Shown: positions 14,451 to 40,110 of the stretch, in pieces
Layout of the letters: each line of letters begins with the position of its first letter
How positions within the stretch are numbered: the stretch's first letter is position 1
NCBI GenBank assembly: GCA_038062895.1
Contig: JBBTWJ010000005.1
Span: forward strand, 67,715 to 131,714
DNA: 64,000 bases
Origin: Patescibacteria group bacterium
GTDB taxonomy: Bacteria; Patescibacteriota; Microgenomatia; UBA10105; UBA927
Direction of reading: 5' to 3'
Notes under the pieces: generated by a model
Seen by the model: only the letters and a program-made list of their open reading frames with translations
The model's database searches: none
Told to the model about the DNA's origin: nothing
Made by a program: the position numbers and the translations under genes

Positions 14451-14470
14451 GTTGGGCCAGGGAAACGGAC

Positions 14471-18814: not shown

Positions 18815-18817
18815 CAA

Positions 18818-21993: not shown

Positions 21994-22895
21994 CGAACAA
22001 ACCCCCGCAAGAATAGAAAATCATGGAGTTTGATGAGTAAAAAAACTACAACTTTTTTCCATACGTTGAGGTTTGTGTTTTTTAGCATGGCGCGAAATTC
22101 AACTGGCCAAAGCTTAATCCTTCGGAGAAAATAAAGTGCCCGGCGATCCGGAAGGTGAATAAACTCTCCTTTTAGGTTCCATTTTTGGCTCAATTGCATT
22201 GCGAGCATTCCTCTGTAATATGCTTTTTTTATTAACAAACAGACGGTCGGCGTTTCCTCGTGGGAGATCACCATGCGGGGGTTGTAGACGCCCCTGATCT
22301 TTTTGGATGTCAATTGAAATCCCAAGTCTGTGTCAGCAGAATCATATCCGAAGATCTGAAACGAAGGGTCAAAGCACACCCGCTTTGTTACGAGTATGTT
22401 TTTTTTGTAGGCAACGTTTTTGGTATCCATAAGGAAGGGAGATGGAATTCCGTTGTGTTTTTTTAACTCGTACAAAAACCAGTAGTTGTTTCGTGTTTGG
22501 AAGGCCTGGGCGACGACGTTTTTTGGGTTAAAAAGAAGAGACCTTCCTATAACATATGATGCACCCGCGTTGGTCAAGGAGAGTAGTACCGCTTTTGTCC
22601 ATAAGGGGTCCAAAACGCAATCATCGTCTGTAAAACCAATGATCGCGGTTTTACACTCAGCGATAGCCTTATTTCGTGCGTCTGGAACAGTGGTATTTGG
22701 TTCATATATATATATGAGGGTTGATATTTTTTTTTGGAACAATTTTATAACAGGAAACGCTGTTTTATTTATGTCGTTATCGACAACAAGAACCGCATGC
22801 GGCTTAATCGTTTGCCGAGCGACACTTTGCAGACACCTCGCAAGTTTTTGTGGGTTGTTTTTTGTAATGATTGCGATGGATAATCCCTGGTTCAT
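21936..22895 (-). CDS. Glycosyltransferase family 2
   Basis: LSIAIITKNNPQKLARCLQSV...AVLVVDNDINKT...GFTDDDCVL (GT-A DXD). Confidence 0.8.
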   Translation of the reverse strand: MNQGLSIAIITKNNPQKLARCLQSVARQTIKPHAVLVVDNDINKTAFPVIKLFQKKISTLIYIYEPNTTVPDARNKAIAECKTAIIGFTDDDCVLDPLWTKAVLLSLTNAGASYVIGRSLLFNPKNVVAQAFQTRNNYWFLYELKKHNGIPSPFLMDTKNVAYKKNILVTKRVCFDPSFQIFGYDSADTDLGFQLTSKKIRGVYNPRMVISHEETPTVCLLIKKAYYRGMLAMQLSQKWNLKGEFIHLPDRRALYFLRRIKLWPVEFRAMLKNTNLNVWKKVVVFLLIKLHDFLFLRGFVRQAGLRNVDIEWYSSRIDR

Positions 22896-24358
22896 ATGAC
22901 AGAGAGATATGCCAGAAGGACCATAAACATATCGAGAGACGGGTCTTGATGAAATAATGTATGAAATTGGGAATTAACCATAAATGTTGCTGCACTAACC
23001 CAAACACTAAAAGAGATCAGAGATTTCGTTGCCCGTCGGAGTGTAGAGTAAAGAATACCGATAGCAAATATGATAAAAAGCAACCCTCCCGGGATGCCCG
23101 TTTCCGAAAAAAAGAGAAGAAATGTATTGTGTACAGGAAAAAGAAAATTCCGGACAACAACCGGAAGATCTTGAGCTGACATAATCTCGGTAAACCGATT
23201 TAGCCCTACGCCAAACAAGGAAAATTTTGATATTTGATAGAACGCTTGTTCTAAAAGGTATATCCGTCCAACTCCGGTTCCTTGAGACCATATGGCGTTC
23301 AATGATGTTAGCCGATCAAGAAGAGTTCCTCCAAACAAGACAAACAATGAAAGGAAAAATATGAGAAGTGCGAGAGATATTTTATTATAGAATCTACGAA
23401 AGGTCTCGAGATTTACCACCACCAATAGGGCGATCGCGCCGCCAGTGGCAATCCACGCGCTTCTACTGAGTGTTCCGAAGAGTGCGAGCAACCCCAATAT
23501 GGTTGTGAGTGAAAATAAACCAACAGCAACATAATTACGCCTTTTTTGTATAAAGGATAGCGCCGTTAATGCAGAGGCAATCGGTATAACGAGAGACAGA
23601 TAGCTTCCAAAAAACGTTGGATGTCCAAAGAGGCCGGAGACTCGATAGAGTTGTGCTCCATCAGCAGTAAAAAATCCCATTACATTACGAAACGCGTTAT
23701 CTTCTAAAAACAACCCGATAGGCCTTTGAGAGAGAAGCTGTTTGGCTCCAATAAGCCCAAGGAATGCAAGTCCCGCAATGAACACCTCGAGGGCATGAAA
23801 TCGGGTTTCTCCCTTGACGAAAAGAACCCGTCCGGAAAAAAAGGCAGATAAAGGAATGATAAGGGAAATTAACCCAAGCCAGCTCACCGTAGAACCACCG
23901 GTGACAACAACGGACAACAGAGCCCATCCAAAGAAGGATGCAAGAATCCACAAAAAGCCCTCCCCTTTTTTGGTCAACGGGGTCTTTATTGGGGATAAAA
24001 ACAAGAGCAAAAGGATGGCAAAGGAGAAAATAAGTTTCAGCGAAAATCCAAAATAGAAGGCATATGCGGACATCCATGGTTCCGGCCCGGCAGTCACGAC
24101 GGAAATATTCCATCCGCGGATTCCCCGTTGAAAAGGAAGCACAAATAATAACATAAAAAAGAGGGTTTCCAAGGGAGGACGCTTGAAATACAAAAAAAGT
24201 ACAATCCCGTAAAGAAGGACCGTGATGATATAAGATTTTTCGTTATAGATAAAAAAAAGAAGAACGTACGACAACAGCGTCCATAAAAAAAATAGGTGTT
24301 CTGATATGAGTCTATAGAGACGGGGCATCTTGTATTGATTGAATTGTGGCCATAACAT
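22892..24358 (-). CDS. O-antigen ligase/polymerase (Wzy)-like polytopic membrane protein
   Basis: More than 10 TM helices. Wzy_C-like central region. Confidence 0.6.
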   Translation of the reverse strand: MLWPQFNQYKMPRLYRLISEHLFFLWTLLSYVLLFFIYNEKSYIITVLLYGIVLFLYFKRPPLETLFFMLLFVLPFQRGIRGWNISVVTAGPEPWMSAYAFYFGFSLKLIFSFAILLLLFLSPIKTPLTKKGEGFLWILASFFGWALLSVVVTGGSTVSWLGLISLIIPLSAFFSGRVLFVKGETRFHALEVFIAGLAFLGLIGAKQLLSQRPIGLFLEDNAFRNVMGFFTADGAQLYRVSGLFGHPTFFGSYLSLVIPIASALTALSFIQKRRNYVAVGLFSLTTILGLLALFGTLSRSAWIATGGAIALLVVVNLETFRRFYNKISLALLIFFLSLFVLFGGTLLDRLTSLNAIWSQGTGVGRIYLLEQAFYQISKFSLFGVGLNRFTEIMSAQDLPVVVRNFLFPVHNTFLLFFSETGIPGGLLFIIFAIGILYSTLRRATKSLISFSVWVSAATFMVNSQFHTLFHQDPSLDMFMVLLAYLSVI

Positions 24359-25202
24359 TCACTTGAGAAAAATATATCCAGATTTGCTGTCCGATTTTAA
24401 TACTCTGATGTCCCCCAAAGTACCACCCGCTGTCGTGGTGTTGTGCTCGTAGGCGCACCTTCATCACGACATCTTTTGCCCGAGGATCTATGGAGAGAAA
24501 CGTATTGTTTGGTGGGTTGTCGATTGTTGCGTCAGATAGAAATATCGCACTTGTGGGGGGCTCTATGGAAATAGTTTCCACAACAGCAACTTGTTTTTTT
24601 TGCGGACCATTGAGCATGGTGTCTCCTACACGCAGAGCTTCAACGACCCAAGGATCTTCATTTCTGACTCTTACTGTAGCGACAATTTCTTTTTCCGGAT
24701 ATCCCTTTTCGGGTACGTTATCATCAATGATTTGTCCCAACACGTCTGCCCGCGTGAGATGAAGCTCTATGAAGGCTCCCACTTCGACCGGCTTGCTGTT
24801 GTAGATGAATTTATTCGTCCGGCCGTTAATTTCTCCTTGAAGTTTGGCCGTGAGATACAAATCAACATCTGTGCCCCAGCGATCATATTTTTCAATGGCA
24901 ATGATTTCTCCAGACCTCCAGCCGTTGACCGTGGTTTCCACGTCACCCACCTGAATGTTTTCACTTAACCAAAACGGCGGCCGATACCCGGCGTAATTAT
25001 TGTAATTTTGAGTCCATGATTTACCGACGACCTGAATTCGAATAATCCGCTCCGTTGGTTTTCGACCGTAAAATTTTACGACGAAAATAGTTAACCCCAC
25101 TAGTATGAGCAATACAAGAACGTGTATTGGGCTTAAGGTCTTTATTCTTTGTAAGAATAGACGTGTTAGGCGGTGCATAGTTTCGTTTATAGATTTTATC
25201 AC
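24312..25202 (-). CDS. N-terminally membrane-anchored hypothetical protein with a beta-rich extracytoplasmic domain
   Basis: Single TM IHVLVLLILVGLTIFVV. Confidence 0.45.
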   Translation of the reverse strand: MIKSINETMHRLTRLFLQRIKTLSPIHVLVLLILVGLTIFVVKFYGRKPTERIIRIQVVGKSWTQNYNNYAGYRPPFWLSENIQVGDVETTVNGWRSGEIIAIEKYDRWGTDVDLYLTAKLQGEINGRTNKFIYNSKPVEVGAFIELHLTRADVLGQIIDDNVPEKGYPEKEIVATVRVRNEDPWVVEALRVGDTMLNGPQKKQVAVVETISIEPPTSAIFLSDATIDNPPNNTFLSIDPRAKDVVMKVRLRAQHHDSGWYFGGHQSIKIGQQIWIYFSQVNVMATIQSIQDAPSL

Positions 25203-26371
25203 AATGGAGGGATGATGGACGTTCGTCGCAGAGAAGAGACTGCGGACGAAAAAATTTGCTTGTTCATTATGGCCCAGCAGATGCGCTTCTCATTGTCTTT
25301 AAAGGGAAGATCAGATGGATGGAAAAGCCTTTGTTTCATTATGGAATATAGTATACGTTGAGGCAACCGGAAGGAGGCTCTGTATTTTAGAGCTGATTGC
25401 AGGATGTCCTTGGGGAGGGAATTGGGGAATAGGTCATTGAATAAACACGCAAACCAGTGAAAGTATGGTATCAAGTGATACGTACGAATAAGTCTCAGTA
25501 CTTCGTCCCAGCGTATGGATTTTTTATATGTGCGAACAACGCGGAACAGTTCGTAGTAACGAACCGCTGATTGGAGGTTATGTTGGTATAAAAGGTGTAC
25601 GAATAGGCTTACAAACAACGCAGTGGGTGAAAATATATACACAGGAATACCGTGGTATAGTCTGTGTTGTTTTTGATTATATAATTCTTGTGTGAGAAGC
25701 CGATTGTTGTAGTCGGACAGAATTCGACTAGTAAAGCTGGATGAATTAACGATAGCAGTATGAAGCTCTACGGTTGTATTACCTCTTATAAATATATGTT
25801 CACTCAACGGAGCATAGAAATCTTGATGTATGAGCGCATTTTTAATGGTCTTTTTGTGGTTCCAGAAACATTTGTACCCCAATTTTGTGAGGATACCTGC
25901 GGCTAATTTGACAGCAGAAACAGGTAAAAGGATGTCCAAGTCACCAGGGATTTTAATCGGCGCTTGGAAAAGCACATGTTCATGCGGAAGCGTTTTCATT
26001 ATGACAAATCGTATGCCTGCATTTGTGAGTGAGCGGACGATATCCGCAGTCGTCTGTTTTTTTATGGCTGACATATGCTGTATGGCCAGCTGATCTGCAA
26101 TCATGTGTCGCATAAATTCTTCTGGGGCAACCGATTGAAATACAGGAGAATTAAAAGAATCTTTACAAATTGCTTGTAGCTGGTTTTGCCGAATGAGTGC
26201 TAAAAGTTGTTGCCAATCAATGAGACCGGCCAATTTTTGTACTACGGCATATGTTTTTTTCGCCGCGGCCGCGTTATTACTCAACTCCAGGAGCACCTGT
26301 TCTTCTGGGGACAATCTGATCCAGGGCATAATATAGGCGCTTAACAAAAGCAAAGAACGGAAAATGTTCAT
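25199..26371 (-). CDS. Nucleotidyltransferase-family protein (PF14907-like 'uncharacterised nucleotidyltransferase')
   Basis: About 390 aa. IKIPGDLDILLP (pol-beta-like hG..DxD NTase motif). Confidence 0.5.
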   Translation of the reverse strand: MNIFRSLLLLSAYIMPWIRLSPEEQVLLELSNNAAAAKKTYAVVQKLAGLIDWQQLLALIRQNQLQAICKDSFNSPVFQSVAPEEFMRHMIADQLAIQHMSAIKKQTTADIVRSLTNAGIRFVIMKTLPHEHVLFQAPIKIPGDLDILLPVSAVKLAAGILTKLGYKCFWNHKKTIKNALIHQDFYAPLSEHIFIRGNTTVELHTAIVNSSSFTSRILSDYNNRLLTQELYNQKQHRLYHGIPVYIFSPTALFVSLFVHLLYQHNLQSAVRYYELFRVVRTYKKSIRWDEVLRLIRTYHLIPYFHWFACLFNDLFPNSLPKDILQSALKYRASFRLPQRILYSIMKQRLFHPSDLPFKDNEKRICWAIMNKQIFSSAVSSLRRTSIIPPL

Positions 26372-26392
26372 AGCCGGTATTAATTTTTTTGT

Positions 26393-27322
26393 TTATCCTT
26401 GCGTCGAGTGCATTATAGAAGTCGGTGAGACGACGCACAACCGTGCGACCAACGATCCAAACCAACGGCATAAACGCCGGATCACAAGAAATCCGGCTAT
26501 GAAGATCAAAAATATAAAAGATTTATGTGAAAGCGCGCATATGATATATGCTTCCTCTTCCCACAGTGACACACGGGACGAGTCGTATTGGGGGAACAGT
26601 CGTTTGATTTTTAGATCAACTGTAAACCGTTTTTCCAATAGACCCCTACTCGCTTCTTGCATATATGCCTTTTTATACAAAGAGAGAGACGTTAAATTAT
26701 CTTTATAGTGTCGAATATCAAGTTGTGGTGCATATTGAATGGTATACCCCAGGAGCTGAAGCGCTATGCAAAGAACAGCTCCGTCGTCCAGAGGTATAGT
26801 TTTTGGCGAAAACCATTGCGCAAGTTGCCGAAGTGTTGCTTTCTTTAGACAAAAACACTCACTATGAAGATAGGTCAGGTGCCGGCCGTTTTTCCAGGCA
26901 AGTTGCTTCTTAGTTTGGACCCAGGAGTACGTATCCATGGCATTGAATACGTCACCCACCCAATTGCTTTTGGGAAATACAAATCGGTTTTTTCCCTGGT
27001 ACAGAGTTCGTTGGTCTATTCTATTCACGTGTTTTATGTAAGCAATGTATCCGTTCGGGATAATGCAGTCGTCGTTTATAAAGAGGAGCACATCCCCTTT
27101 TGCCTGTTTTGCGGCGGCATTTTTGATTTTCAGCATGTGATTGTCGGACGAAGATAACCAAACCAGCAAGGGGCGGGACGTTTTTGTTAGCGTTTTTGGT
27201 TGTTTTCCGTTGTGGACAATGATAATCTCGTCATTGCGTGTCGTTTGTCGAGCCAATGCATTGAGACATGCGTCGAGTCTTATTGATGAATCATTCGCGG
27301 TGATAATAGCTGAAACATTCAT
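26393..27322 (-). CDS. Glycosyltransferase family 2
   Basis: MNVSAIITANDSSIRLDACLNALARQT...IIIVHNG...LFINDDCII. Confidence 0.8.
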   Translation of the reverse strand: MNVSAIITANDSSIRLDACLNALARQTTRNDEIIIVHNGKQPKTLTKTSRPLLVWLSSSDNHMLKIKNAAAKQAKGDVLLFINDDCIIPNGYIAYIKHVNRIDQRTLYQGKNRFVFPKSNWVGDVFNAMDTYSWVQTKKQLAWKNGRHLTYLHSECFCLKKATLRQLAQWFSPKTIPLDDGAVLCIALQLLGYTIQYAPQLDIRHYKDNLTSLSLYKKAYMQEASRGLLEKRFTVDLKIKRLFPQYDSSRVSLWEEEAYIICALSHKSFIFLIFIAGFLVIRRLCRWFGSLVARLCVVSPTSIMHSTQG

Positions 27323-27396
27323 CTTGACAGGCCTTAATGGGGTAACTTAATATACTATTATATATAAATGTGTATTAGGAAAGGAGGAAATAATAT

Positions 27397-27483
27397 ATGA
27401 AAAAGATAAGTTCTCAAAAAAAGACATATAGTAAGCCCGCGACAAAAATTGAAAAGATCGTGATTCAAACCAGGTCTTGCTAA
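27397..27483 (+). CDS. Candidate 28-aa peptide MKKISSQKKTYSKPATKIEKIVIQTRSC with a canonical Shine-Dalgarno (AGGAGG, 9-nt spacing), convergent with the PqqD-like gene
   Basis: ORF and RBS read directly. Lys/Ser/Thr/Tyr-rich with a C-terminal Cys. Below the ORF-track length cut-off. Confidence 0.3.
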   Translation: MKKISSQKKTYSKPATKIEKIVIQTRSC

Positions 27484-27516
27484 CGGGATTTGAATGTCAG
27501 AGCCTCTCATGCTTCT

Positions 27517-27801
27517 TCAGCCATCAATTGTGTTGAGTAGCTTTTTGTTGAGATAAACGGTTAAAAATTTAATAATATCCTCTTTTGCCTGTGCATAATC
27601 AACGTCAAATTCATCTGTAACCATATGAATAATATTTTGCACAGATCGAGGCTTGCGTAAATACTTCCATATGGATGTGGCGGTTTCATTAAGTGTATGA
27701 ATGGTCTCCGTCACCGGATCTACGATATAGATCGTTCCGTTGTGTTCTTTTTGGATAAGTGTATTATTGATACGCAGGACCGTGCTTAAGCGAAGAAGCA
27801 T
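27517..27801 (-). CDS. PqqD-family protein (stand-alone RiPP recognition element-like)
   Basis: 94 aa. TLNETATSIWKYL...SVQNIIHMVTDEFDVDYAQAKEDIIKFLTVYLNKKLL matches the PqqD/RRE pattern. Confidence 0.7.
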   Translation of the reverse strand: MLLRLSTVLRINNTLIQKEHNGTIYIVDPVTETIHTLNETATSIWKYLRKPRSVQNIIHMVTDEFDVDYAQAKEDIIKFLTVYLNKKLLNTIDG

Positions 27802-27824
27802 GGTTCAAATACTAATTTACATCA

Positions 27825-29537
27825 TTGTGCATGTCAACATTGACTCATCAATTCTTAAATTTTATCCTCGCTTTTTCGGTTTTTGGTCTGATTGCCTTTG
27901 TCGCGTTAAAGACCAAATGGACGAACAGGAAGCTTGATCTTCTCAGCTACATCTTTGTCGCGCCCAGTCACATAAAAACCCATCCGTGGCTATGGATAAT
28001 CTCACTGATTTCGATCGTTCTTATTCGCGACTTTTTGGAAAACTACTCGGAATGGTCAAAGTGGATAATTCCTCTAGACGTTCATATGGAGTATTCTCTG
28101 TTTTGGTTTTCTCTTTTTTTCACCTTTTCGCTTTTTCTTAAACTTTTATCGCGAGAAGGTATTGATAAAATATCGAAATTTTTGGTTTGTTCCTGGTTTG
28201 TGACTTATATTCCACCGCTTGTTGACCCGATAATATATTTTGGTCGTGCCTTCCGTATGACGTACGTGTATAAGGAGCCTCTACAGAAGTTCCTCACATT
28301 TTACGGTACAAGTCCCTTCGGTCGGGAGGCGACAATAGGCATAAGAATCGAAATTATTCTAGTTGTAATCCTTGCCAGCCTCTATGTTGCCAATAAAACC
28401 AGAAACTGGTTTAAAACAGTATTAGCCGGTTTAGGGGGCTACAGCATCGCCTTCTTTTATATGGCAATGCCTGTATTTTACAAAGGTTTGAAGACTATCT
28501 TGGGATTTCCCCCAACAATGTCGTACCCTCGTGAATACGTGGATTCTTTAATCTATATCATGCTTGTGCTTATTCCGATTTATTTATCAATGTATAAGAA
28601 AAGGGAGAGGATTCAGTTTTTTGAGAAATCTTTTGAGCTTATTAATATTAGACGGTTCAGAGTGAGCAGAGTGATCATTGTGACGTTAATCAGAAACATC
28701 AGACCGTTTCGACTGATTCACTATGCCACGCTTTCATTTTTTGGGATGTTTATTGCTTACCGGTTTGATCCCGGTGCTTCTTATTCCTTTAATGTTCTGA
28801 AAATAATACCGGCAATTCTCTCAATGGCTTTTGCCTGGCTTTTTGCAGTACAAATTAATGATATTTTTGATATACAAATCGATGAAATATCAAATCAACA
28901 AAGGCCTCTGGTCAAGAAGTTTATCGACCGAGAAAATTATAAGCTATATTCTGCAATCTTTTTTATATTATCTTTAATTTTTGCATCTTTGATTAACTTC
29001 GCGGCTGCAAACATGATACTATATTATATGGTAGCCTACTCGTTCATCTATTCGGCGCCACCACTAAGGCTCAGGAGATTTCTTTTTATTCCAAACGCCA
29101 TTATCGGGCTCTGTAGTGTGTTGGCGGTTCTTTTTGGCTTCTCAACGGTCGCCAACTCAAAGACTTTTGCCTTGATGCCGTGGCACTATTCTTTATTTAT
29201 ATTTTTAATATATGCGCTTGCTTCGACAATGAAGGACATTAAGGATTACAAGGGGGATAAAGTCAATAAAATCGATACGTTGCCGACAGTGCTGGGTCTC
29301 ACTCTTGGAAAAAAAATTATCGGTTTTTTTATTGTAACAAGCTTCATATTAATGGGAATTCTCATAAGCTGGATTCTTCCCTTATATCCCAAGAGCTGGT
29401 TGGCCCTCTTTACGACAGTGTTTGCTGTATTAGGATACTTGTTTACCGTAAAAAAGAATGAGAAGTGGCTTTTTTCCATAGAATATATTTACCTTACTGT
29501 CGTGCTCTCAACAGTGTCTTATTTCAGACTTATGTAA
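27825..29537 (+). CDS. Polytopic membrane protein whose C-terminal half is a UbiA-family prenyltransferase-like domain
   Basis: NDIFDIQIDEISNQQRPL (NDxxDxxxD) and KDIKDYKGDKVNKIDTLP (second Asp-rich motif). More than 12 TM helices. Confidence 0.6.
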   Translation: MCMSTLTHQFLNFILAFSVFGLIAFVALKTKWTNRKLDLLSYIFVAPSHIKTHPWLWIISLISIVLIRDFLENYSEWSKWIIPLDVHMEYSLFWFSLFFTFSLFLKLLSREGIDKISKFLVCSWFVTYIPPLVDPIIYFGRAFRMTYVYKEPLQKFLTFYGTSPFGREATIGIRIEIILVVILASLYVANKTRNWFKTVLAGLGGYSIAFFYMAMPVFYKGLKTILGFPPTMSYPREYVDSLIYIMLVLIPIYLSMYKKRERIQFFEKSFELINIRRFRVSRVIIVTLIRNIRPFRLIHYATLSFFGMFIAYRFDPGASYSFNVLKIIPAILSMAFAWLFAVQINDIFDIQIDEISNQQRPLVKKFIDRENYKLYSAIFFILSLIFASLINFAAANMILYYMVAYSFIYSAPPLRLRRFLFIPNAIIGLCSVLAVLFGFSTVANSKTFALMPWHYSLFIFLIYALASTMKDIKDYKGDKVNKIDTLPTVLGLTLGKKIIGFFIVTSFILMGILISWILPLYPKSWLALFTTVFAVLGYLFTVKKNEKWLFSIEYIYLTVVLSTVSYFRLM

Positions 29538-29573
29538 AATATACAGAGAGAATGTCCCGTTAGAAATATATAG

Positions 29574-31298
29574 TTATTTGGCAACAAGCCCACACATTTT
29601 TAGATGATTGAATATCATGTCAGTGCATTCTTGCGGCGTTTTATCGAGCGTATGGAGATGAACCTCCGGGATTAGTGGCGGTTCATACGCATCATTTATT
29701 CCGGTAAAATGTTTTATTTTATTTGATCTAGCATTTTGATAATATCCTTTTGTATCCCGCGCTTCACACGTAGCTAGCGGACAATCAACATACACTAAAA
29801 TAAAAGATCCATGCGGCATAAAATAACGAACCTGCTGTCGAGTTTGTTCGTATGGGCTTATAGCGGCGCATATGACTGCGCCGCTATGATGGACTATCTC
29901 TGATGCAACAAATCCGATTCGTAATACATTCGTGTCACGATCTTCTTTCGAGTATCCCAGACCCTTCGAAAGATGCGTGCGCACAACATCGCCATCCAAC
30001 AATGAGACTTCTCTTCCGGATTCCTGAATGAGATTTTGTAATAATACAGCGATGGTAGATTTGCCCGCGCAAGGGAGCCCCGTGAGCCAGACGCAAAACC
30101 CTTTTTTATGAAGCGGGATATACGAATCGGCAAGAATTTTTGCAACTTCCGGACGGGTGAACCACCCCGGTAGTTTTTTGCGGCCGGTTAGGTATACGTT
30201 GCGCACGTCCGTTCCGGAAAGAGCCGAAAATTTATTTTTTTTTGAAATAGAATAAGATTCTGTGTATTTTTTTTGCGAACGGTTGTATGCAAGCTCGTTG
30301 AATAGTAATGGTTTGATTCCAATTTCAGCTGCTACGCTCTGTATTAATTTTTGAGCAGCGTCAGGGGCATAAAACTGTTTCCCTTGAATATTGACACCGG
30401 GACTGGCGTGATTTCTTCCGACGATAAAATAATTAGCACCGTAATTTCGTCTGATTATGGCGTGCCATACCGCTTCGCGTGGGCCCGCAAACCGCATTGC
30501 CAACGGAAGAATGCTTAACACCGTTTTGTCGTGAGGGAAGTATTTTTGATACATAGTGTTATAAATTTGGACGCGGGTTATGTATGGAATGTCGTCTATT
30601 TTTGTTATTCCGACTGTTGGATGAATGAGCAGTGTCCCGTGTACCTTTTCCGCTGCGCGCTTACAAAGCTCTTCGTGGGCTCGATGCATGGGATTTCGCG
30701 TTTGAAAGGCAACGACATTATTGTTTCCGTATGTTTCCAATATGATGCGTAGCGATGCGGGTGTTTGACGGAGGTTAAAAAAGTTATAATAGTGGGGAAG
30801 GTTGATAACCTGTATTGGTCCGGAAACGCAATAATCAGGCCAGTGACACATTTCCGATACCATCGGATGGGTCGGATCCGTTGTTCCGTATACCAGTTGA
30901 CATTCCTTCTTAAAATCTCTTTTATATATATCCTGAACGGACATGACGGCGATAATTTCATTGAACTGGTTGCGGAGTGTTATTTTCTTATTTTTAAGGA
31001 TAGACCGGTCGTTTGATAGTGGAAGTGTAATGGGGATCGGGAACAGCGTCCCATTGGATAACCGCATGGATTCAATAACACGGTGATAGTCGTTGCGAGT
31101 CATGAATGTGGAGAGCGGTGAAAATGCCCCCGTAGCGAGTAATTCCAAGTCTTGCATAGACCGCTCAGACAGCTGATATGACGGGATGTTGATGGCGCGG
31201 GCGAGCAATTCTGCGCGTTTTTCTTTATCAACCACAAGCGAAATCAGCTTCCCGCCATAGGGAGTGATGAGTGACAGTGCTGTTTGATGGTTATTCAT
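29574..31298 (-). CDS. Bifunctional sulfate adenylyltransferase (ATP sulfurylase) / adenylylsulfate kinase (PAPS synthase)
   Basis: N-terminal Sat-like domain with QTRNPMHRAHEEL. C-terminal APS-kinase P-loop WLTGLPCAGKSTIA followed by LDGDVVR. Confidence 0.85.
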   Translation of the reverse strand: MNNHQTALSLITPYGGKLISLVVDKEKRAELLARAINIPSYQLSERSMQDLELLATGAFSPLSTFMTRNDYHRVIESMRLSNGTLFPIPITLPLSNDRSILKNKKITLRNQFNEIIAVMSVQDIYKRDFKKECQLVYGTTDPTHPMVSEMCHWPDYCVSGPIQVINLPHYYNFFNLRQTPASLRIILETYGNNNVVAFQTRNPMHRAHEELCKRAAEKVHGTLLIHPTVGITKIDDIPYITRVQIYNTMYQKYFPHDKTVLSILPLAMRFAGPREAVWHAIIRRNYGANYFIVGRNHASPGVNIQGKQFYAPDAAQKLIQSVAAEIGIKPLLFNELAYNRSQKKYTESYSISKKNKFSALSGTDVRNVYLTGRKKLPGWFTRPEVAKILADSYIPLHKKGFCVWLTGLPCAGKSTIAVLLQNLIQESGREVSLLDGDVVRTHLSKGLGYSKEDRDTNVLRIGFVASEIVHHSGAVICAAISPYEQTRQQVRYFMPHGSFILVYVDCPLATCEARDTKGYYQNARSNKIKHFTGINDAYEPPLIPEVHLHTLDKTPQECTDMIFNHLKMCGLVAK

Positions 31299-31325
31299 TG
31301 GACTTATTTAAGAGCGTGACGTCTG

Positions 31326-32105
31326 ATGTTAGAATACCCACATGGTCTTTCGCCACCTTGTACGACAATCAGTATAAATGTTGTTTCTATTTATATTAGA
31401 GCTATGCAACACGATATATCCATGACGGTTGCTGATATATGTTTTTCTTTGCGTTTTCCTACTATAAGATACACAAATTTTTTTAAACGAAAATATGTAA
31501 AGTATCTTCGACGTAAAGGTAGAGAACGGGCGATAACCTTTCCATATGTAGTTGATTACCCAATACAACGATTGCCATTTTTAAAATTTAATATGTATTT
31601 TCGAAATATTGCCTGTTCCGTATTAAAAAAGCACGGAGGGCTCATTCTTCACGGATCGGCATTGGTACATAACAACTTGGGATACGTTTTTGTCGGTCCT
31701 CCCGGAGCAGGAAAATCAACCATGCGGAAGCTTTTTTCTGATTATACATGTCTCGGTGATGACACGGCAATCGTACGAAAAGTAGGTAAGAGATACTACA
31801 TGTTTGGCTCTCCATTTTATCAGAAAACAAATATTGCTTATTCAAATGTGAAGATTCCGTTGCGCGGGGTGTATATTCTCAAACAGGCAACTATAACAAA
31901 ACTCGTACATTTATCTTATGCAGAGAGCCTGTCTCAGATATTAGCGAATACGTTTATGTCAACTGTGAATAGCCTATCGGATGAACGAACGAAAACCATA
32001 TCGCTTGTTATGCATATGATCGATGAAATACCAATAGTTATGCTTAATTTTGAAAAAAAACGTTCATTACTTGAATCTGTGGTTTTTCGAAAGCCCACAA
32101 CTTGA
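31326..32105 (+). CDS. HPr kinase/phosphorylase C-domain-like protein (serine kinase-like, as found in peptide-tailoring clusters)
   Basis: LHGSALVHNNLGYVFVGPPGAGKSTMRKLFSDYTCLGDDTAIV: HprK-like P-loop followed by the LxxDD block. True start probably internal. Confidence 0.55.
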   Translation: MLEYPHGLSPPCTTISINVVSIYIRAMQHDISMTVADICFSLRFPTIRYTNFFKRKYVKYLRRKGRERAITFPYVVDYPIQRLPFLKFNMYFRNIACSVLKKHGGLILHGSALVHNNLGYVFVGPPGAGKSTMRKLFSDYTCLGDDTAIVRKVGKRYYMFGSPFYQKTNIAYSNVKIPLRGVYILKQATITKLVHLSYAESLSQILANTFMSTVNSLSDERTKTISLVMHMIDEIPIVMLNFEKKRSLLESVVFRKPTT

Positions 32106-32117
32106 ACACATCATCAT

Positions 32118-32399
32118 ATGTTTGTAACATCGGGATCGAGCATGGCCCCGTTGATCGAAACGGGTTCAAAGTTGATTATTGATTGGCACCCAAAGATATT
32201 TAAGTTGGGAGACGTCGTCTTGTTTTTTAGCCACTACAACCGCTTGGTCGCGCATAGAATAGTAGCAGTTGCTCCCTCAGGAACAAAGAAGCATTATTTA
32301 ATCAAGGGGGATAATACGTTCCATGATGATGGATGGTTTGAAGAGGCGCAGCTCGTTGGTAGGGTTCGCAAAATTATCCGGAGGAGAAAAAGCTCTTGA
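32118..32399 (+). CDS. Mini (93 aa) S24/S26 signal-peptidase-like serine peptidase domain protein
   Basis: TSGSSMAPLIETGSKLII (Ser box), GDVVLF, LVAHRIVAV (His box of Ser/His-type SPase), GDNTFHDDGW. Confidence 0.5.
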   Translation: MFVTSGSSMAPLIETGSKLIIDWHPKIFKLGDVVLFFSHYNRLVAHRIVAVAPSGTKKHYLIKGDNTFHDDGWFEEAQLVGRVRKIIRRRKSS

Positions 32400-32433
32400 C
32401 CGAGATCGATTTGAGAGCTGCTGCATAAGCAAA

Positions 32434-33177
32434 TTATTCGAGAAAAAATTTGGACCATTCGGTTTTTTGAAAATAACGTTTGAGTTCTGTGTAGTTTTTT
32501 AGTAGATACGGAAGCGGAGTGGTATTGAGCTTGATTAAAGAGGATGCAAGGGGTTTTTGTTGGAGTTGTAAGAAATCCAGAATTTTGGCCGACCGCTTTT
32601 CCTTATTTGTGACCATGCTTTCGTATGTAATGGAAAGCATATCACTGTTTTGAAAAAAATCATCATAATACCGCTGATGCGTTGATACGATCATAAAATA
32701 TTTGAGACACTCTTGTGGATTGATCGTTAATCTTATTTGGTGGATGTGTGCCTGGTTTGTTGCCATTATAATATTCGTTTTTAACGTTAAAATTGTAGAA
32801 ACGTATGACGCAAGGAGATTTGTTCGTTTAAGATGAATGATTTTTATTTCACGATGATCGCGTAGCCATGTCCAGATGTGACCGGCTCTGCAATTAATTG
32901 CCTGCGTATACATAAGCTTAAATCCGACTGCACGAACATGATTAGGATATTGTTTATATATATGATGTCTCAAAAATATCAACGGAAAGCAGTCGCGTAC
33001 ATGAGCGAATAGCCATGGCTCAAGAGCGCTCCTATGGGGGAAACGATTGAAATAGGAAGGATGAAAACACTCACCATATGCCCGTACCATTGGATGGCTG
33101 TTGAGTAAGGAGAGCAACCACACCGTACCACTCCTGTAGGTAGATAGAATAATAAATCGCTGATAATTTTTGTTCAT
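32434..33177 (-). CDS. PAPS-dependent sulfotransferase (Stf0/NodH-like family)
   Basis: N-terminal 5'-PSB-like loop FIILSTYRSGTVWL. Size about 250 aa. Confidence 0.65.
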   Translation of the reverse strand: MNKNYQRFIILSTYRSGTVWLLSLLNSHPMVRAYGECFHPSYFNRFPHRSALEPWLFAHVRDCFPLIFLRHHIYKQYPNHVRAVGFKLMYTQAINCRAGHIWTWLRDHREIKIIHLKRTNLLASYVSTILTLKTNIIMATNQAHIHQIRLTINPQECLKYFMIVSTHQRYYDDFFQNSDMLSITYESMVTNKEKRSAKILDFLQLQQKPLASSLIKLNTTPLPYLLKNYTELKRYFQKTEWSKFFLE

Positions 33178-34049
33178 ACAGGAATAAGAGCCTGATGGGG
33201 AAAATTTCCCTTTAATTGATGTACGGCAATAAGTGTGGATGTTGTTTTTCCGTTTAAATATAAATGATGGTTCGGAAACGCACGTTTGTAATAACTAATA
33301 ATTTGTTGCACAGAAGATTTTTTGGCGCCGAGGAGATTAACAAAGACGATCGTCCGCATCTTGCTTAAACGCGCGAGGGTGTGAATAAATCGCCACCCAA
33401 GTGAGTTCTTCGGTATTTCCGAGTTTACAAAAAGATCTACGATGATTATGTCATACTGTTTTTTTGTGTGTGTGACATACTCCGATGCATCACGGAGTAG
33501 AAGAGTAATTTTTTGAGTCTCCCTCGGAGATAAAAAAAATCGTTTTGTGATTGACACCATGGTCTTTGATATTTCGATCACATCAATGTGAGAGGACGGA
33601 TATTGTTGAATAATAGTTTTTGCAAGAGAGCACCCACCCCCTCCCAGGAGCAAGACGGCCGCATTGTCTGGAATAGATTGTGCCTGTAAAATAATCCGGA
33701 TATTGTCAAAATATGCCCATGTCGATTGTTTGGTAAAAAATATTTTAGAATCGATTGCGTTGCTATTGAATGTTGATAATGATCGATAATTATTAAGTGA
33801 ATGAAATGGTTTGTAATAATCCTTAATTTCATATTGTTTTCCATATTCCATGAATGAATATCTGCGGATCACTATGCCGTATTTGTAGGCAGCAACAACA
33901 CATATGAAGGCCAAGGTAATAAACGATCCGACGATAACGTAGCCAAGTGATCGAGTGAGGTCGTGACCCCATACAGCAAAAATACCGCTATTTCGACGCC
34001 GAATAAGAGCATCAAGCGTTTTACCCCTACATTTATATATGCGATCCAA
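33174..34049 (-). CDS. Membrane-anchored spermidine-synthase-like / class I SAM-dependent methyltransferase-fold protein
   Basis: AVLLLGGGGCSLAKTI...HIDVIEIS...YDIIIVDLF (PABS/Rossmann MTase pattern). N-terminal TM. Confidence 0.5.
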   Translation of the reverse strand: MDRIYKCRGKTLDALIRRRNSGIFAVWGHDLTRSLGYVIVGSFITLAFICVVAAYKYGIVIRRYSFMEYGKQYEIKDYYKPFHSLNNYRSLSTFNSNAIDSKIFFTKQSTWAYFDNIRIILQAQSIPDNAAVLLLGGGGCSLAKTIIQQYPSSHIDVIEISKTMVSITKRFFLSPRETQKITLLLRDASEYVTHTKKQYDIIIVDLFVNSEIPKNSLGWRFIHTLARLSKMRTIVFVNLLGAKKSSVQQIISYYKRAFPNHHLYLNGKTTSTLIAVHQLKGNFPHQALIPV

Positions 34050-34081
34050 AATATTGGCACGATGGGCATCATATTGTCTTA

Positions 34082-34804
34082 TTATGTTTTTCGGTGCAAA
34101 TAATTTTTGAGTACTGTATGAGAACTATTAATTTTAATAATTGTTCCTTTATGCATCCAAATAATTTTTTGGGTGTGTTTTCGAATGGTTTCGAGATTGT
34201 GAGACACAACAACCAGAGTCAATGTATGCGAAATGATTTTTTGTAGTGCTTTTTTTAATTTTGTTTGAAAGTTTATATCTCCTGCTTGTAACCCTTCGTC
34301 TAAGATCAGAACATCGGGGTTCGTATATACAGAAATAGCAAATCCCAACCGCAGTTTCATCCCTTGTGAATAGGTAAACAGCGGAGCATCGATAAAGTTG
34401 TCAATATCTGCAAAGGCGATTATGCGTTTGAGTTTTTCGTCAATTTCTCGCCTTTTCATCCCCAAGAGCAAGCCGTTAAGGTATACATTCTGTTCGCCTG
34501 TTAACTCCGGATGGAAGCCGGCCTCGAGATCAATAAGGGACACGACTTGGCCATGAGTTTTTACGGTACCGGAGGTCGGCGTGGTGATACCAGCGATGAT
34601 TTTGAGCAGCGTGGTCTTCCCCGATCCGTTGGAGCCGATGATGCCTACCCGCTCCCCCTTGCGGATGGTGAGATTTACATTGTTGAGTGCCCAAAATTCT
34701 TCGTCTTTCCCTTTAGCAAGCCGTTCCATCAGTGTCGGCTTTTCATGGTGGATGGTATACTTTTTACTTACGCCACTTAGTTTAATGGCTATTTGGTTAT
34801 TCAT
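34082..34804 (-). CDS. ABC transporter ATP-binding protein, polysaccharide-export (Wzt/TagH) type
   Basis: Walker A GIIGSNGSGKTTLL. Signature LSGGQ-like FTYSQGMKLRLGFA. Walker B ILILDEGL. Confidence 0.85.
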   Translation of the reverse strand: MNNQIAIKLSGVSKKYTIHHEKPTLMERLAKGKDEEFWALNNVNLTIRKGERVGIIGSNGSGKTTLLKIIAGITTPTSGTVKTHGQVVSLIDLEAGFHPELTGEQNVYLNGLLLGMKRREIDEKLKRIIAFADIDNFIDAPLFTYSQGMKLRLGFAISVYTNPDVLILDEGLQAGDINFQTKLKKALQKIISHTLTLVVVSHNLETIRKHTQKIIWMHKGTIIKINSSHTVLKNYLHRKT

Positions 34805-34824
34805 AATTCACGAATAGACACGAA

Positions 34825-35223
34825 TCACTCGCGAATAGAGCGCGAATTGTTAATGATACGTTTATATTCGAGCCTGGGACGACGGAAGTTTACCAAAATA
34901 GCTAGGGGCAGATTTGTTTCTACGAGATATGCCAGAGCCTGCTTGAAAAATTTAGGACTATATGCCACTTGAGCCTTCGTTTCTAGAATGATCTGATTTT
35001 CGACAATGAAATCAAGAATATACTTGCCTATCGGCTCTTCTTTGTAGGTGAGGGCGACGGAGATTTCCCGTTTATACGCGATTTTTTGATTATCGAATTC
35101 TTTTGCAATGGCTCGTTGATAGTATTTTTCTAACAAAGAGGACCCGAGTTCGTTGTGGACGGCAAACAACGCACCCATGATTTTATATGATAGTTCTGGT
35201 AAGACGATAGGCTTGTCAGTCAT
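34825..35223 (-). CDS. GxxExxY family protein
   Basis: 132 aa. YKIMGALFAVHNELGSSLLEKYYQRAI pattern (GxxExxY). Commonly inserted in polysaccharide loci. Confidence 0.65.
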   Translation of the reverse strand: MTDKPIVLPELSYKIMGALFAVHNELGSSLLEKYYQRAIAKEFDNQKIAYKREISVALTYKEEPIGKYILDFIVENQIILETKAQVAYSPKFFKQALAYLVETNLPLAILVNFRRPRLEYKRIINNSRSIRE

Positions 35224-36079
35224 ATTTGATTATTTCGATATGCGATGTGTGCCATGGTTCCCATTGCATGAACAGGTTGCCGTGTTTTAAATCATTGATT
35301 TGTTTATTCGTGCACGCGGGGTAGTTGGAACCGATGTCTCTGTTTGGGATGCAGAGCCTATCGAATTTTTTAAGAAATTTTAATTCGTTTTTCTCGGTAT
35401 ATACAAAAAGAAATGATGGAACCGGCGTATGTTTATTTAGTTCTAACAGACCCAGTATGAGCATGCTGTTTCTTTCCCGGCCGCCGGATGATCCGTTTCC
35501 CCCGCGGCTGGCGACTTTTTGATCGTCTTGCTCCCAAACAAAGATGTTGTCATACGGGTTGCGCCAATCAATCCAATTGAGCGGTTCCGGCAAGCAGTAA
35601 TACCGTTCCCTGTCGATCTGAACGCGGTTTTGAAAAAGCTTTATGTGATTGCGGTGTTTGGCAAGAATTGCGCGTTTGTATCGCGGTTCCAGTTCTCGCT
35701 CAATTATAAAGTCATCTATTGTTTCATATTTTTTACTTTGTTGCCAAACAGGGCGGTATCGTTCAAGCCACGTAGCAAACAGATCGTTTCCTTCTCTCTG
35801 GCCAAACTCCTCAAAGAACAGGGAATACAGGAGCTTCCGGTATTTGCTCACCATCGGCTTTTTGGTTTTTTTGACGTATTCTTTTCTGTTTCTTAACTCC
35901 CATTTCAGCGGGTCGATAATGACGGTAATCGTATACGGGTTTTTATCCTGCAGTGCCGCGGCGATCTCTCGGTGCGTGCGGAACAGTGCGTTGGACCAGG
36001 AAATGTTTTCAAAAAGTATTGGGTCGAAATCCTTTTGGAGTGCGGACGGATTGATTTGGATGGTTTGTAGGACATTCAT
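35216..36079 (-). CDS. Hypothetical protein (287 aa), 8-nt overlap with the GxxExxY gene
   Basis: ORF only. No motif recognised. Confidence 0.4.
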   Translation of the reverse strand: MNVLQTIQINPSALQKDFDPILFENISWSNALFRTHREIAAALQDKNPYTITVIIDPLKWELRNRKEYVKKTKKPMVSKYRKLLYSLFFEEFGQREGNDLFATWLERYRPVWQQSKKYETIDDFIIERELEPRYKRAILAKHRNHIKLFQNRVQIDRERYYCLPEPLNWIDWRNPYDNIFVWEQDDQKVASRGGNGSSGGRERNSMLILGLLELNKHTPVPSFLFVYTEKNELKFLKKFDRLCIPNRDIGSNYPACTNKQINDLKHGNLFMQWEPWHTSHIEIIKYD

Positions 36080-36092
36080 AGTGCCGTTAGCA

Positions 36093-37482: not shown

Positions 37483-38250
37483 TTACAGCCAATCATCAAA
37501 ATATCTACTCTCGCGTTGGAAAACAGAAATACCAAGGATAGCAATGATCAAAATAACACCAATGTTAGATAGGAGCATGGCCGGGCCGGGGCCTGGCAAA
37601 CCCAAGATGGCCATTTGAAGAAGTTGGAGGATAGACGTGAGAGGGTTAAATCTCCAGAGCCAGAGGAAACGGGGCGGGATCATGGTAAGCGCATACATGA
37701 CAGGGGTTGCATAAAACCAAACAATGAGGAGGGCGGAGATAAAAAAACTGACATCACGAAAGCGCACATTGAGACTTGCGGTCAAGAGGCTTAATCCGAC
37801 AGTAAATGAGAGTAATAACACAAAACTCAACAGAATGAGAGGAGCAGAAAATATGGAGAGTGTCCCGAGGAAAAGAACGGGTATGAGGTAAAGGAGGAAT
37901 GCGAGAAAAAAATGGATGAAGTTGGAGAGGATAATGGAGATAGGGATGACGGCGTGGGGAAACCGCGCTTTTTTTATGAGTCCCCGTTCGTTGACGATGG
38001 ACGGGGTGGTTTTGGCTAGCGATAGCGAGAAAAAATTCCAGACCAACAGTCCGTTAAAGAGGAAAAAATAATAATTTTTTACCGGCTGTTTGAGAAGGAA
38101 TGTAAACACGAATCCGATGACGAGCATCTGGAGAAGTGGGTTGGCTACAAGCCATAAAAATCCGAATAGTGTGTGTTTGTACCGCGCGCGCAGTTCCTTC
38201 TCCGTCATGGCGATAATGAGTTCGATCGCGTGAGCCACTTCTTTTCGCAT
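37483..38250 (-). CDS. ABC-2 type transporter permease (Wzm/TagG-like)
   Basis: ELRARYKHTLFGFLWLVANPLLQMLVIGFVF and six TM helices. Confidence 0.8.
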   Translation of the reverse strand: MRKEVAHAIELIIAMTEKELRARYKHTLFGFLWLVANPLLQMLVIGFVFTFLLKQPVKNYYFFLFNGLLVWNFFSLSLAKTTPSIVNERGLIKKARFPHAVIPISIILSNFIHFFLAFLLYLIPVLFLGTLSIFSAPLILLSFVLLLSFTVGLSLLTASLNVRFRDVSFFISALLIVWFYATPVMYALTMIPPRFLWLWRFNPLTSILQLLQMAILGLPGPGPAMLLSNIGVILIIAILGISVFQRESRYFDDWL

Positions 38251-39330: not shown

Positions 39331-39597
39331 ATGTATCAAACGGCTACGATTACCAGCAAGCGGCAGCTTACTATTCCAGCGGAAATGTATCGGAGGATGA
39401 ATTTTGAGAAACGGCAGAAAGTCGTTCTTTCTTTGGAAGCTGATGTGATCCATATAGAACCGGCGTTTGATTTGGTCGAGCGGCTTGCCGGATCCCTTTC
39501 TGTGCCACCAGCCTATCGGGGAAAAGATGTAGATACCATGATTGCAGATGCGAAGCGAGTATATATCCAGAAACGGATGAAGCGTCGATTGGTATGA
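39331..39597 (+). CDS. AbrB/MazE/VapB-type antitoxin
   Basis: SKRQLTIPAEMYRRM looped-hinge-helix motif. 4-nt overlap with the PIN gene. Confidence 0.7.
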   Translation: MYQTATITSKRQLTIPAEMYRRMNFEKRQKVVLSLEADVIHIEPAFDLVERLAGSLSVPPAYRGKDVDTMIADAKRVYIQKRMKRRLV

Positions 39598-39998: not shown

Positions 39999-40027
39999 AA
40001 AATTTTACGTCATGGACCTATGAAGCG

Positions 40028-40110
40028 TTAGGGTTGTGGGGTCCAGAGGCCGCGGGTGGCACCTTTTGCCCGCTCTTCGGCAGCTAGGAGTATAGAGAGA
40101 TATTTGGGTT
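40028..40110. repeat. About 80-nt near-identical repeat (3' end of the SNase gene plus 8 nt downstream); partner at 41976-42060
   Basis: tgtggggtccagaggccgcgggtggcaccttttgcccgctcttcggcagc... shared by both copies, read directly. Confidence 0.8.

Follow-up and report, generated by a model that had tools for sequence, protein, structure and literature searches.

The 64,000-nucleotide stretch of DNA analysed here (the window) carries a group of genes of the type that make peptides synthesized ribosomally and modified post-translationally (RiPPs), set within a glycan locus. The DNA comes from Hainich groundwater (ENA ERZ1292633), and proteins identical or near-identical to those it encodes are labelled ‘Patescibacteria group bacterium’ or ‘Candidatus Gottesmanbacteria’. 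The group, referred to here as the cassette, consists of an unannotated precursor peptide gene and genes for a PqqD-type RiPP recognition element (RRE), an HprK-like kinase, a minimal signal-peptidase-I-like (SpI-like) peptidase, a PF14907 nucleotidyltransferase (NTase) and a GT2 glycosyltransferase, and genes for sulfation are interleaved with it. Our main point of comparison is the linear polyphosphorylated peptides (LPPs), RiPPs of Bacillota described by Popov et al., Nat Commun 2026 (PMC13381572), for which the lppA-K-B-S-D-N cluster of Paenibacillus alginolyticus is the model and a peptidase/RRE/kinase/NTase quartet forms the core of the experimentally validated family. As argued below, the cassette is likely a patescibacterial version of this pathway.

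The precursor gene (27397..27483, plus strand; found with a hidden Markov model (HMM) and by conservation) encodes 28 amino acids (aa), MKKISSQKKTYSKPATKIEKIVIQTRSC, and lies in the 195-nt gap between the genes of the cassette GT2 and the RRE, on the strand opposite to both. A ribosome-binding site, GGAGG, is found at 27383-27387, 9 nt 5' of the precursor ATG, and a consensus scan identified a putative sigma-70-like promoter (27324..27353, plus strand; TTGACA, an 18-nt spacer and TAATAT, 10/12 matches). The promoter-like site is kept in a Gottesmanbacteria relative (locus L010), and the DNA 3' of the precursor stop codon diverges. Within the open reading frame (ORF) itself, synonymous changes are present and the ratio of nonsynonymous to synonymous substitution rates (dN/dS) against L010 is 0.24. 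When an HMM was built from eight peptides of other loci, leaving out the window peptide and its two closest relatives, it retrieved this ORF alone from the 2299 stop-to-stop segments of the window, with an E-value of 2.7e-8 (next best 0.051). No gene is called at this position on any of the source contigs, the exact peptide was not found in a collection of 15 billion proteins, and the ORF had also been missed by an earlier note on this DNA; precursor genes of 24-38 aa thus appear to be systematically overlooked by gene callers.

Homologues of the kinase and the peptidase define 11 distinct loci, the window included, of which the named ones belong to the Microgenomates group of the candidate phyla radiation (CPR), and all of them encode such a peptide. 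The Tyr and Pro of a YxxP motif (Tyr11-x-x-Pro14, Y11-S-K-P14, in the window leader) are invariant in 11/11 peptides. The relatives are MKKASSQKKAYSKPAAKVEKIVIQTRTC in L010, ..KKAYRKPEAKIEKIVIQSRVC in L007 (which ends in Cys), ..KKTYRKPAEKKESIKEIKTVTTSDY in L011 (Beckwithbacteria), ..KRIYQKPAEKVKRIEILRGY in L012 (Shapirobacteria), MKKKKTYNKPKDRVEKIEIYTAEY in L013, ..REIYKKPAEKKEKITITTIVQS in L016, ..KQKYQTPAEKVEKIKTTFEVNSNSDAW in L022, ..KKSYIKPSVKIIKIVAQTIRTSEF in L023, ..KKRPYVSPAEKIEKLEVFAGYGNAE in L030 and ..KRAYVKPSAKVEKMLMLTEST in L034. All ten adjoin the RRE or the GT2 gene, a position that is constant even though the enzymes of these loci are only 30-50% identical. After Pro14 the window peptide reads ATKIEKIVIQT and then RSC, and by analogy with the LPP system cleavage is predicted after Thr25, which would leave the core Arg-Ser-Cys (RSC). 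The CPR precursors are 24-38 aa long with predicted cores of roughly 3 to 11 residues (3 in the window). Read from the sequences, Thr or Ser stands at P+11, counted from the motif Pro, in 8/11, and a nucleophile at P+13 or P+14 in 9/11 (Cys, Tyr and Thr three times each), where it is the last residue of five peptides.

The stand-alone PqqD-family RRE (27517..27801, minus strand; PF05402, 52.8 bits) is the equivalent of LppB or of lasso peptide B1 proteins. Its best NCBIfam model is lasso_PqqD_Bac and its best sequence matches in the PDB are the lasso PqqD chaperone 9x90_B (PbaB1 by sequence; E 2.5e-4) and TbiB1 (E 4.6e-4). Over 59 aa it shares 32% identity with an LppB of Bacillus aquimaris, and its Asn38 and Asp75, both invariant in the 11 CPR RREs, align with N33 and D70 of LppB, of which the former fixes the Pro kink of the YxxP motif and the latter the Tyr hydroxyl (PMC13381572). 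Because it keeps these equivalents, with Asn and not the paeninodin-type Gly at the Pro-kink position, the window RRE resembles a Tyr reader of the LPP type or of the general lasso type.

The kinase, of HprK/ScmC type and equivalent to LppK (31326..32105, plus strand; probably starting at Met27, position 31404), matches TIGR04249 (ScmC, 28.8 bits) and TIGR04352 (HprK_rel_A, 19.4 bits), the models through which LPP kinases were recognized (132/152 ‘HprK kinases’; RODEO, supplement of PMC13381572). A precomputed match to PF27840 (ScmC) exists, and no match was obtained in the Pfam copy searched, PF07475 included; ScmC relatives were scored as having no family because that copy is without PF27840. 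The P-loop residues G124, G129, K130 and T132, as well as D145 and D146, are invariant among homologues. An AlphaFold2 model (predicted local distance difference test score, pLDDT, 88.8) has Foldseek matches to PEPCK (E 3.5e-7) and to HprK/P (1knx and 1kkl, E ~2e-4), and the modelled fold is that of the superfamily expected for HprK-like P-loop kinases. The family is large, with 6926 representatives in an exhaustive protein search and three matches by a word-indexed search; contig and metagenome scans with the kinase alignment, for which one degenerate pattern was used, gave 4 and 15 loci, respectively. The closest relatives (P0004-P0027) are about 390 aa long and have an extra C-terminal domain that carries the motif IIDGNH[RH]A and resembles ParB/sulfiredoxin-like domains, without a Pfam match; this domain is missing from the window kinase.

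Directly downstream lies the gene of a minimal, 93-aa serine peptidase of the SpI-like SipW/archaeal type (32118..32399, plus strand), the equivalent of LppS and the predicted leader peptidase. It scores 48.4 bits (cutoff 51.85) with TIGR02228, the model of the LPP peptidase (supplement of PMC13381572), and 39.7 bits with the SipW model. With LppS it shares 35% identity over 84 aa (pairwise E 7e-15), and Ser8, His46 and Asp71 align with the mutationally defined catalytic residues S29, H68 and D93 of LppS; these motifs are kept in 13 CPR SpI-like homologues, and dN/dS against L010 is 0.15. The AlphaFold2 model (pLDDT 91) is best matched by human SEC11A/C (template-modelling (TM) score 0.79, root-mean-square deviation 2.2 A), followed by SipA and SpsB. 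Other CPR homologues have a C-terminal tail that the window enzyme does not. One SpI homologue, P0189 (L032/L033), was set aside as an ordinary SipW-like enzyme outside the present system, encoded in a capsule locus without RRE.

On the other side of the precursor gene are the cassette GT2 glycosyltransferase (‘GT2b’; 26393..27322, minus strand; PF13641, PF00535), whose orthologues directly adjoin the RRE or the peptide in 9/11 loci, and the PF14907 NTase (25199..26371, minus strand; 86 bits, cutoff 31.2), the equivalent of LppN and PsmN. The NTase is also found in L007, L010, L011, L012, L030 and L034, and fused to an SpI domain in L023; in the LPP clusters the NTase is the NTP_transf_5 protein, with 140 counts in 126 neighbourhoods (supplement of PMC13381572). 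PDB sequence searches with the NTase, the GT2 and the mini-peptidase gave no informative match.

Taken together, the peptide, the RRE, the ScmC-type kinase and the SpI-like peptidase occur in 11/11 loci, and a Wzm/Wzt exporter is present within the fetched DNA of 10/11, the exception being a locus with only 4 kb of DNA. The cassette GT2 is found in 9/11, the NTase in at least 8/11 and a PIG-L-family sugar de-N-acetylase beside the kinase in 5/11 loci; sulfation genes are confined to three (window, L010 and L034) and a UbiA-like gene to two. The recurrence of the same gene set in ten other loci argues that it is not a chance juxtaposition, and dN/dS values of 0.08-0.32 between the window and L010 indicate purifying selection on all cassette and sulfation genes.

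Several variations on this arrangement were seen. Three fusions join parts of the cassette: SpI-NTase (L023, 6534-7964), PIG-L deacetylase-kinase (P0038) and Wzt-SpI (OGV92686.1, discussed below). Locus L030 keeps synteny with the window except that the place of the UbiA, PAPS and sulfotransferase genes is taken by genes for a second PqqD and for a QueC-like PP-loop ATPase (4294-5561), which suggests that tailoring modules are interchangeable. Radical-SAM genes lie beside some cassettes, namely in L011 (4329-5366, B12-binding type), L010 (1-378, SPASM type) and L034 (12738-14213, a weak match). A four-gene version, composed of a 53-aa YxxP peptide, PqqD, an HprK_C-like kinase and SpI, is present in L031 (6567-8471), outside any glycan locus and in a genome with Por-secretion-tail proteins, so the core cassette exists beyond CPR and Bacillota as well.

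The sulfation genes of the window provide both a donor and a transferase. A fused ATP sulfurylase/adenosine 5'-phosphosulfate (APS) kinase (bifunctional Sat/CysC; 29574..31298, minus strand; NF004040, 736 bits; PF14306, PF01747 and PF01583), for the synthesis of 3'-phosphoadenosine 5'-phosphosulfate (PAPS), is inserted between the RRE and kinase genes, as it is in L010. The NodH/Stf0-like, PAPS-dependent sulfotransferase (32434..33177, minus strand; PF00685, 38.7 bits; PF13469, 38.8 bits) has NodH (9vki) as its sole solved relative (E 4.4e-9, residues 4-205, covering the N-terminal PAPS-binding loop, RSGTVWL against RSGSSHL), and the sources of its homologues call them NodH or Stf0. NodH/Stf0 enzymes sulfate sugars. 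Seven homologues were found, and the three closest with known context (window, L010 and L034) adjoin the RRE/kinase cassette, so that the possibility raised in the earlier note, that such genes would be found elsewhere only with carbohydrate-sulfation genes, is not borne out; a distant homologue (P0243, L035) has an unrelated, transposase-rich context. In L034 an APS-kinase gene lies next to the sulfotransferase gene, in an order that differs from that of the window. Sulfation is an accessory feature of these loci and not, as previously supposed, a core one. Between the RRE and PAPS genes lies one for a polytopic membrane protein (27825..29537, plus strand) whose C-terminal domain belongs to the UbiA family of prenyl/phosphoribosyl-transferases (PF01040, 95.7 bits, residues 318-543); it is conserved only in L010. 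S-prenylation of the C-terminal Cys by this protein was considered and rejected, because L007 lacks UbiA though its peptide also ends in Cys.

Next to the cassette lies a Wzt-type ABC-2 (ATP-binding cassette type 2) ATPase without the carbohydrate-binding extension, a probable exporter subunit (34082..34804, minus strand; PF00005; TagH/Wzt NCBIfam models up to 193 bits). Its Wzm-type permease partner (37483..38250, minus strand; PF01061) is separated from it by a PDDEXK/AbiE block. Wzt adjoins the cassette in 10/11 loci, with Wzm paired to it in all longer ones. The CPR loci examined yielded no exporter dedicated to peptides, whether of MsbA type or another. The Microgenomates protein OGV92686.1, listed in the supplement of PMC13381572, joins Wzt and SpI in one protein, and over 221 aa its N-terminal part shares 41% identity with the Wzt of the window. 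An RRE is encoded next to this Wzt-SpI protein, to which the authors assigned no precursor (PMC13381572). This fusion links leader removal to the ABC-2 exporter.

The surrounding glycan locus spans about 15.9-43.2 kb of the window, as judged from domain searches of its ORFs, and contains two Wzy_C proteins, a GDSL esterase, WecG/TagA, GT4, two GT2s and DUF4330, in addition to Wzt, Wzm, an RGP-like protein and a Bac_transf phosphoglycosyltransferase (42640-43236). The DUF4330 membrane protein (24312..25202, minus strand; PF14221, 47.6 bits) is a neighbour of the NTase and has orthologues in L010, L013, L023 and L030. A spermidine-synthase-like methyltransferase-fold protein (33174..34049, minus strand; PF01564, 38.9 bits) adjoins wzt and is also found beside Wzm/Wzt in L010, L014, L023 and L034. 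One of the Wzy_C proteins (15938-18814, 958 aa) combines an O-antigen-ligase membrane domain with a soluble extension of about 550 residues without a family match, and is kept in L030. A bacterial homologue of the ‘reversibly glycosylated polypeptide’ of plants, a protein of the UDP-arabinopyranose mutase family (PF03214, 180 bits; 38280-39269), is also kept at the locus edge, with a counterpart in L023 (11994-12977). The insertion between wzt and wzm (34825-37435) consists of a gene for a PD-(D/E)XK nuclease, one hypothetical gene and a toxin-antitoxin pair of AbiEii/AbiEi-like type, of which the syntenic L030 has the PDDEXK gene alone; a PIN/antitoxin pair and two repeated SNase, AbiEii and AbiEi-like units lie downstream (39331-42542). 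The G+C content is 0.39-0.44 over the glycan/RiPP locus (18000-36000) and 0.47-0.55 in both flanks, which would fit a surface-structure island that is mobile or evolves fast. Further upstream, dnaN and dnaA at 13.2-15.8 kb (13172-15844) are directly adjoined by type-IV-secretion-like genes (774-13160). Among these, 4272-6485 encodes a coupling protein of VirD4/TraG type, 6723-8096 a PrgI-like protein and 8902-10767 a P-loop ATPase of VirB4/TraG type, alongside large ORFs without a family match.

The earlier note had assigned the PAPS synthase, the sulfotransferase, the stand-alone PqqD protein, the HprK-like P-loop protein, the NTase and the 93-aa S26-like peptidase to these families and placed them among glycan genes, and these identifications hold: the HMM searches expose none of the PqqD, HprK-like and NTase calls as false positives, with the proviso that the kinase is recognized by its ScmC/HprK-related models and fold and not by PF07475, and GT2, GT4, WecG, Wzy_C, Wzm/Wzt and Bac_transf genes do surround the region. 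A comparison with related genomes, which it had recommended, shows the gene set travelling together as described above. Between the two readings it offered, that of a modified ribosomal peptide is strengthened by the conserved YxxP precursor beside the RRE and by the LPP-type quartet. Its view that the combination is without explanation no longer stands, since such a set was described in Bacillota in 2026, also within polysaccharide loci (PMC13381572).

We consider it likely that the segment encodes a patescibacterial, Microgenomates-type form of the LPP-class RiPP pathway, set within a Wzm/Wzt glycan-export locus through which the product is probably exported. The gene identities, the precursor gene and its conservation, the conserved catalytic and binding residues and the co-occurrence of the genes are established here, and the steps of the model below build on them. 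Phosphorylation, the cleavage site, sugar addition and the order of the steps are modelled on LppK, LppS, LppB and PsmN; the target of sulfation and the use of Wzm/Wzt are proposed from enzyme family and gene order. In the proposed model, the 28-aa peptide would be transcribed from its own putative promoter and its leader bound by the PqqD RRE, with Asp75 holding Tyr11, Asn38 the Pro14 kink and residues 17-23 pairing as a beta strand. The ScmC/HprK-like kinase would phosphorylate the core nucleophile, possibly repeatedly (Cys28 by register, with Ser27 as an alternative), and the PF14907 NTase and cassette GT2 would add one or more sugars to the phosphate or side chain. The NodH/Stf0-like sulfotransferase would then sulfate the sugar, using PAPS from the dedicated Sat/CysC fusion, the SpI-like enzyme would cut after Thr25 of the substrate presented by the RRE, and Wzm/Wzt would export a small anionic glycopeptide.

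A number of points weigh against this model. The HMM scores of the kinase, the SpI-like peptidase and the RRE fall under the curated equivalog cutoffs, the window peptidase lacks the N-terminal helix by which LppS docks on the LppB RRE, and the L016 and L022 peptides (2/11) are without a nucleophile at the predicted position. In the LPP system itself, LppK accepted neither Thr nor Tyr at the acceptor position and LppN was inactive in a heterologous host (PMC13381572); as the CPR nucleophile is Cys or Tyr in several loci, the chemistry may differ. No MsbA-like exporter was found among the scanned window ORFs, the use of Wzm/Wzt being our inference, and sulfation genes are present in only 3/11 loci, with a sulfotransferase whose family acts on carbohydrates and which could equally serve the surrounding undecaprenyl-phosphate (Und-P)-linked glycan. 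This last point leads to a credible, although clearly less probable, explanation, in which two systems share the locus: an LPP-like cassette that makes a phosphorylated, perhaps glycosylated mini-peptide and, independently of it, a sulfated Und-P-linked surface glycan made by the sulfotransferase, PAPS synthase, UbiA-like protein, WecG, GT4, GT2a, Wzy_C and Wzm/Wzt, their interleaving being the outcome of mosaic evolution. The sugar-acting type of the sulfotransferase, the sparse distribution of the sulfation and UbiA genes and the full glycan toolkit around the cassette, Bac_transf included, all agree with such a division, and the locus is indeed mosaic, with toxin-antitoxin and nuclease genes between wzt and wzm; Bacillota LPP gene clusters also lie in capsule loci, a functional link not having been demonstrated (PMC13381572). 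However, the PAPS and UbiA-like genes split the otherwise adjacent RRE-kinase pair in the window and L010, where the sulfotransferase gene also abuts that of the peptidase, and L034, although arranged differently, again has an APS kinase and a sulfotransferase beside the cassette. A separate peptide system would moreover be left without a dedicated exporter in the CPR loci examined, whereas Wzm/Wzt is adjacent in 10/11 and a Wzt-SpI fusion exists, and PIG-L deacetylases and GT2 are fused or adjacent to cassette genes, so that sugars are likely part of the peptide pathway. For the sulfated sugar, gene order and the recurrence in L034 favour a place on the peptide product; it could instead be on a lipid-linked glycan, for which the enzyme family and the 3/11 distribution leave room.

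We regard it as very improbable that the substrate of the RRE, kinase, NTase and peptidase is a larger protein, or else the glycan or lipid carrier, with the small ORF being due to chance or regulatory. The ORF is indeed very short and passed over by gene callers, and with a core of about three residues its precursor is below the 35-200 aa of characterized family members (PMC13381572). Nevertheless, the leave-out HMM finds it with no other match in 64 kb, its invariant Tyr and Pro are mirrored by the invariant Asn and Asp of the RRE, and it has a ribosome-binding site and a promoter-like site. The synonymous changes inside it, set against the diverging downstream DNA, and its constant place beside the RRE or GT2 across loci with such dissimilar enzymes also speak for a genuine precursor.

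If the LPP-type reading holds, the presence of this machinery in Microgenomates-type CPR means that the family reaches as far as a very distant, genome-reduced lineage. Its physical tie to Wzm/Wzt, to sugar-modifying enzymes and, in three genomes, to PAPS synthesis supports an anionic glycopeptide or glycoconjugate linked to the cell envelope, and flags a conserved, costly surface or secreted molecule in organisms that are thought to be host-attached. In addition, a three-residue core with one nucleophile would be a naturally minimal substrate, which could make the NTase and glycosyltransferase chemistry tractable. A bolder and rather doubtful extension is that the ribosomal peptide serves as a primer and not as an end product. 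A phosphate-linked glycan would be assembled by the kinase, NTase and GT2 on a single core residue and subsequently de-N-acetylated, methylated or sulfated, and the SpI-like enzyme would clip the leader at Wzm/Wzt, an arrangement suggested by the Wzt-SpI fusion. Were this true, the surface of an ultra-small CPR cell would carry a gene-templated, peptide-anchored sulfated glycoconjugate, produced by a surface-glycan route with a ribosomal peptide, and not undecaprenyl phosphate, as its starting point.

Several known systems share parts of this gene set. The RaxX/RaxST logic of Tyr sulfation, which the earlier note had likened to the locus, is not supported and was rejected, because the sulfotransferase is of the carbohydrate-acting NodH/Stf0-like type and the RSC core has no Tyr. 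The closer parallel for the sulfation genes is the Nod factor system, with its NodH sulfotransferase, NodPQ PAPS synthesis and NodIJ ABC-2 exporter. In both, one locus combines a sulfotransferase of NodH type with its own ATP sulfurylase/APS kinase and an ABC-2 exporter, which in the Nod system serve, and in the window would serve, a small secreted glycoconjugate, but the window is without chitin-oligomer synthase or acyl-transfer genes and its sulfation genes are interleaved with a RiPP cassette. In class II bacteriocin and lanthipeptide systems, peptidase-containing ABC transporters (PCATs) have a C39 Cys protease on a type-I exporter. The Microgenomates Wzt-SpI fusion likewise couples leader removal to an ABC exporter, but with a Ser/His SpI-like domain on an ABC-2 ATPase, and in the window the two are separate genes. 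The SynChlorMet cassette consists of ScmC, two radical-SAM/SPASM enzymes and ScmD; it was rejected here, as the scanned window ORFs include an ScmC-type kinase and PqqD and no radical-SAM gene. No relevant literature was found on ScmC/SynChlorMet or on PqqD-linked RiPPs in Patescibacteria. In mycofactocin synthesis, MftA has a C-terminal Val-Tyr core, MftB is the RRE, MftE the peptidase and MftF a GT2 that glycosylates the peptide-derived product. A short precursor with the core at its end, an RRE, a dedicated peptidase and a GT2 are thus shared, and the cassette GT2 weakly matches MftF-type models (35.6 bits, cutoff 182). In contrast, the window lacks the radical-SAM protein MftC and MftD, and its core would presumably undergo phosphorylation and not oxidative decarboxylation.

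With the paeninodin and pseudomycoidin lasso clusters (PadeK/PsmK, PsmN), the window shares an RRE for a Y/WxxP leader, an HprK-like kinase, which in those clusters acts on the linear precursor, a PF14907 NTase and the occasional sulfotransferase. PsmN adds a hexose to phospho-Ser, and some such lasso clusters carry a sulfotransferase gene (PMC8498205). A canonical lasso cluster was nevertheless rejected: as previously noted, B2 protease and Asn-synthetase-like cyclase are absent, with neither Asn-synthase nor transglutaminase domains found in any window ORF of at least 110 aa, and the predicted 3-residue core falls far short of what a macrolactam of 7-9 residues requires. The paeninodin RRE also differs in having Gly where the window RRE has Asn.

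The LPP system shares the most specific features. Both have a SipW/archaeal-type SpI with the same catalytic Ser/His/Asp (its role as leader peptidase being predicted in the window), a discrete PqqD RRE whose Asn/Asp pair recognizes YxxP, an HprK-like kinase matching TIGR04249/TIGR04352 and a PF14907 NTase, and both lack a lasso cyclase and lie in a polysaccharide locus. The peptides agree in the YxxP leader, in a Thr that precedes the predicted cut and in a nucleophile as the third core residue. Counted from the motif Pro, LppA has the Thr of its cleavage site at P+12 and phospho-Ser3, on which LppK puts up to four phosphates, at P+15; LppS cuts after T-1 only with LppB present, and the leader consensus is YxxPxVLxHQxIxFETxxS in precursors of 35-200 aa (PMC13381572). 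In contrast, the window precursor has 28 aa and a core of about three residues, the extended VLxHQxIxFETxxS is missing, the Thr and the +3 nucleophile are one residue nearer the Pro, and the CPR acceptor would be Cys, Tyr or Thr and not Ser. The CPR cassette has a conserved GT2 and often a PIG-L deacetylase, and ABC-2 Wzm/Wzt takes the place of the MsbA-like LppD; three loci, the window included, add PAPS synthesis and a sulfotransferase, and the window peptidase is cut down to a 93-aa catalytic core. Among the 126 Bacillota neighbourhoods, Sulfotransfer_3 occurs once and ABC2_membrane twice (supplement of PMC13381572), and the family was considered by its authors to be restricted to Bacillota, with clusters in capsule or polysaccharide loci (PMC13381572). 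The present system is in Patescibacteria: we take it to be a variant of the LPP family in a new phylum, and what it adds is a minimal core, the coupling to an ABC-2 exporter and sulfation.

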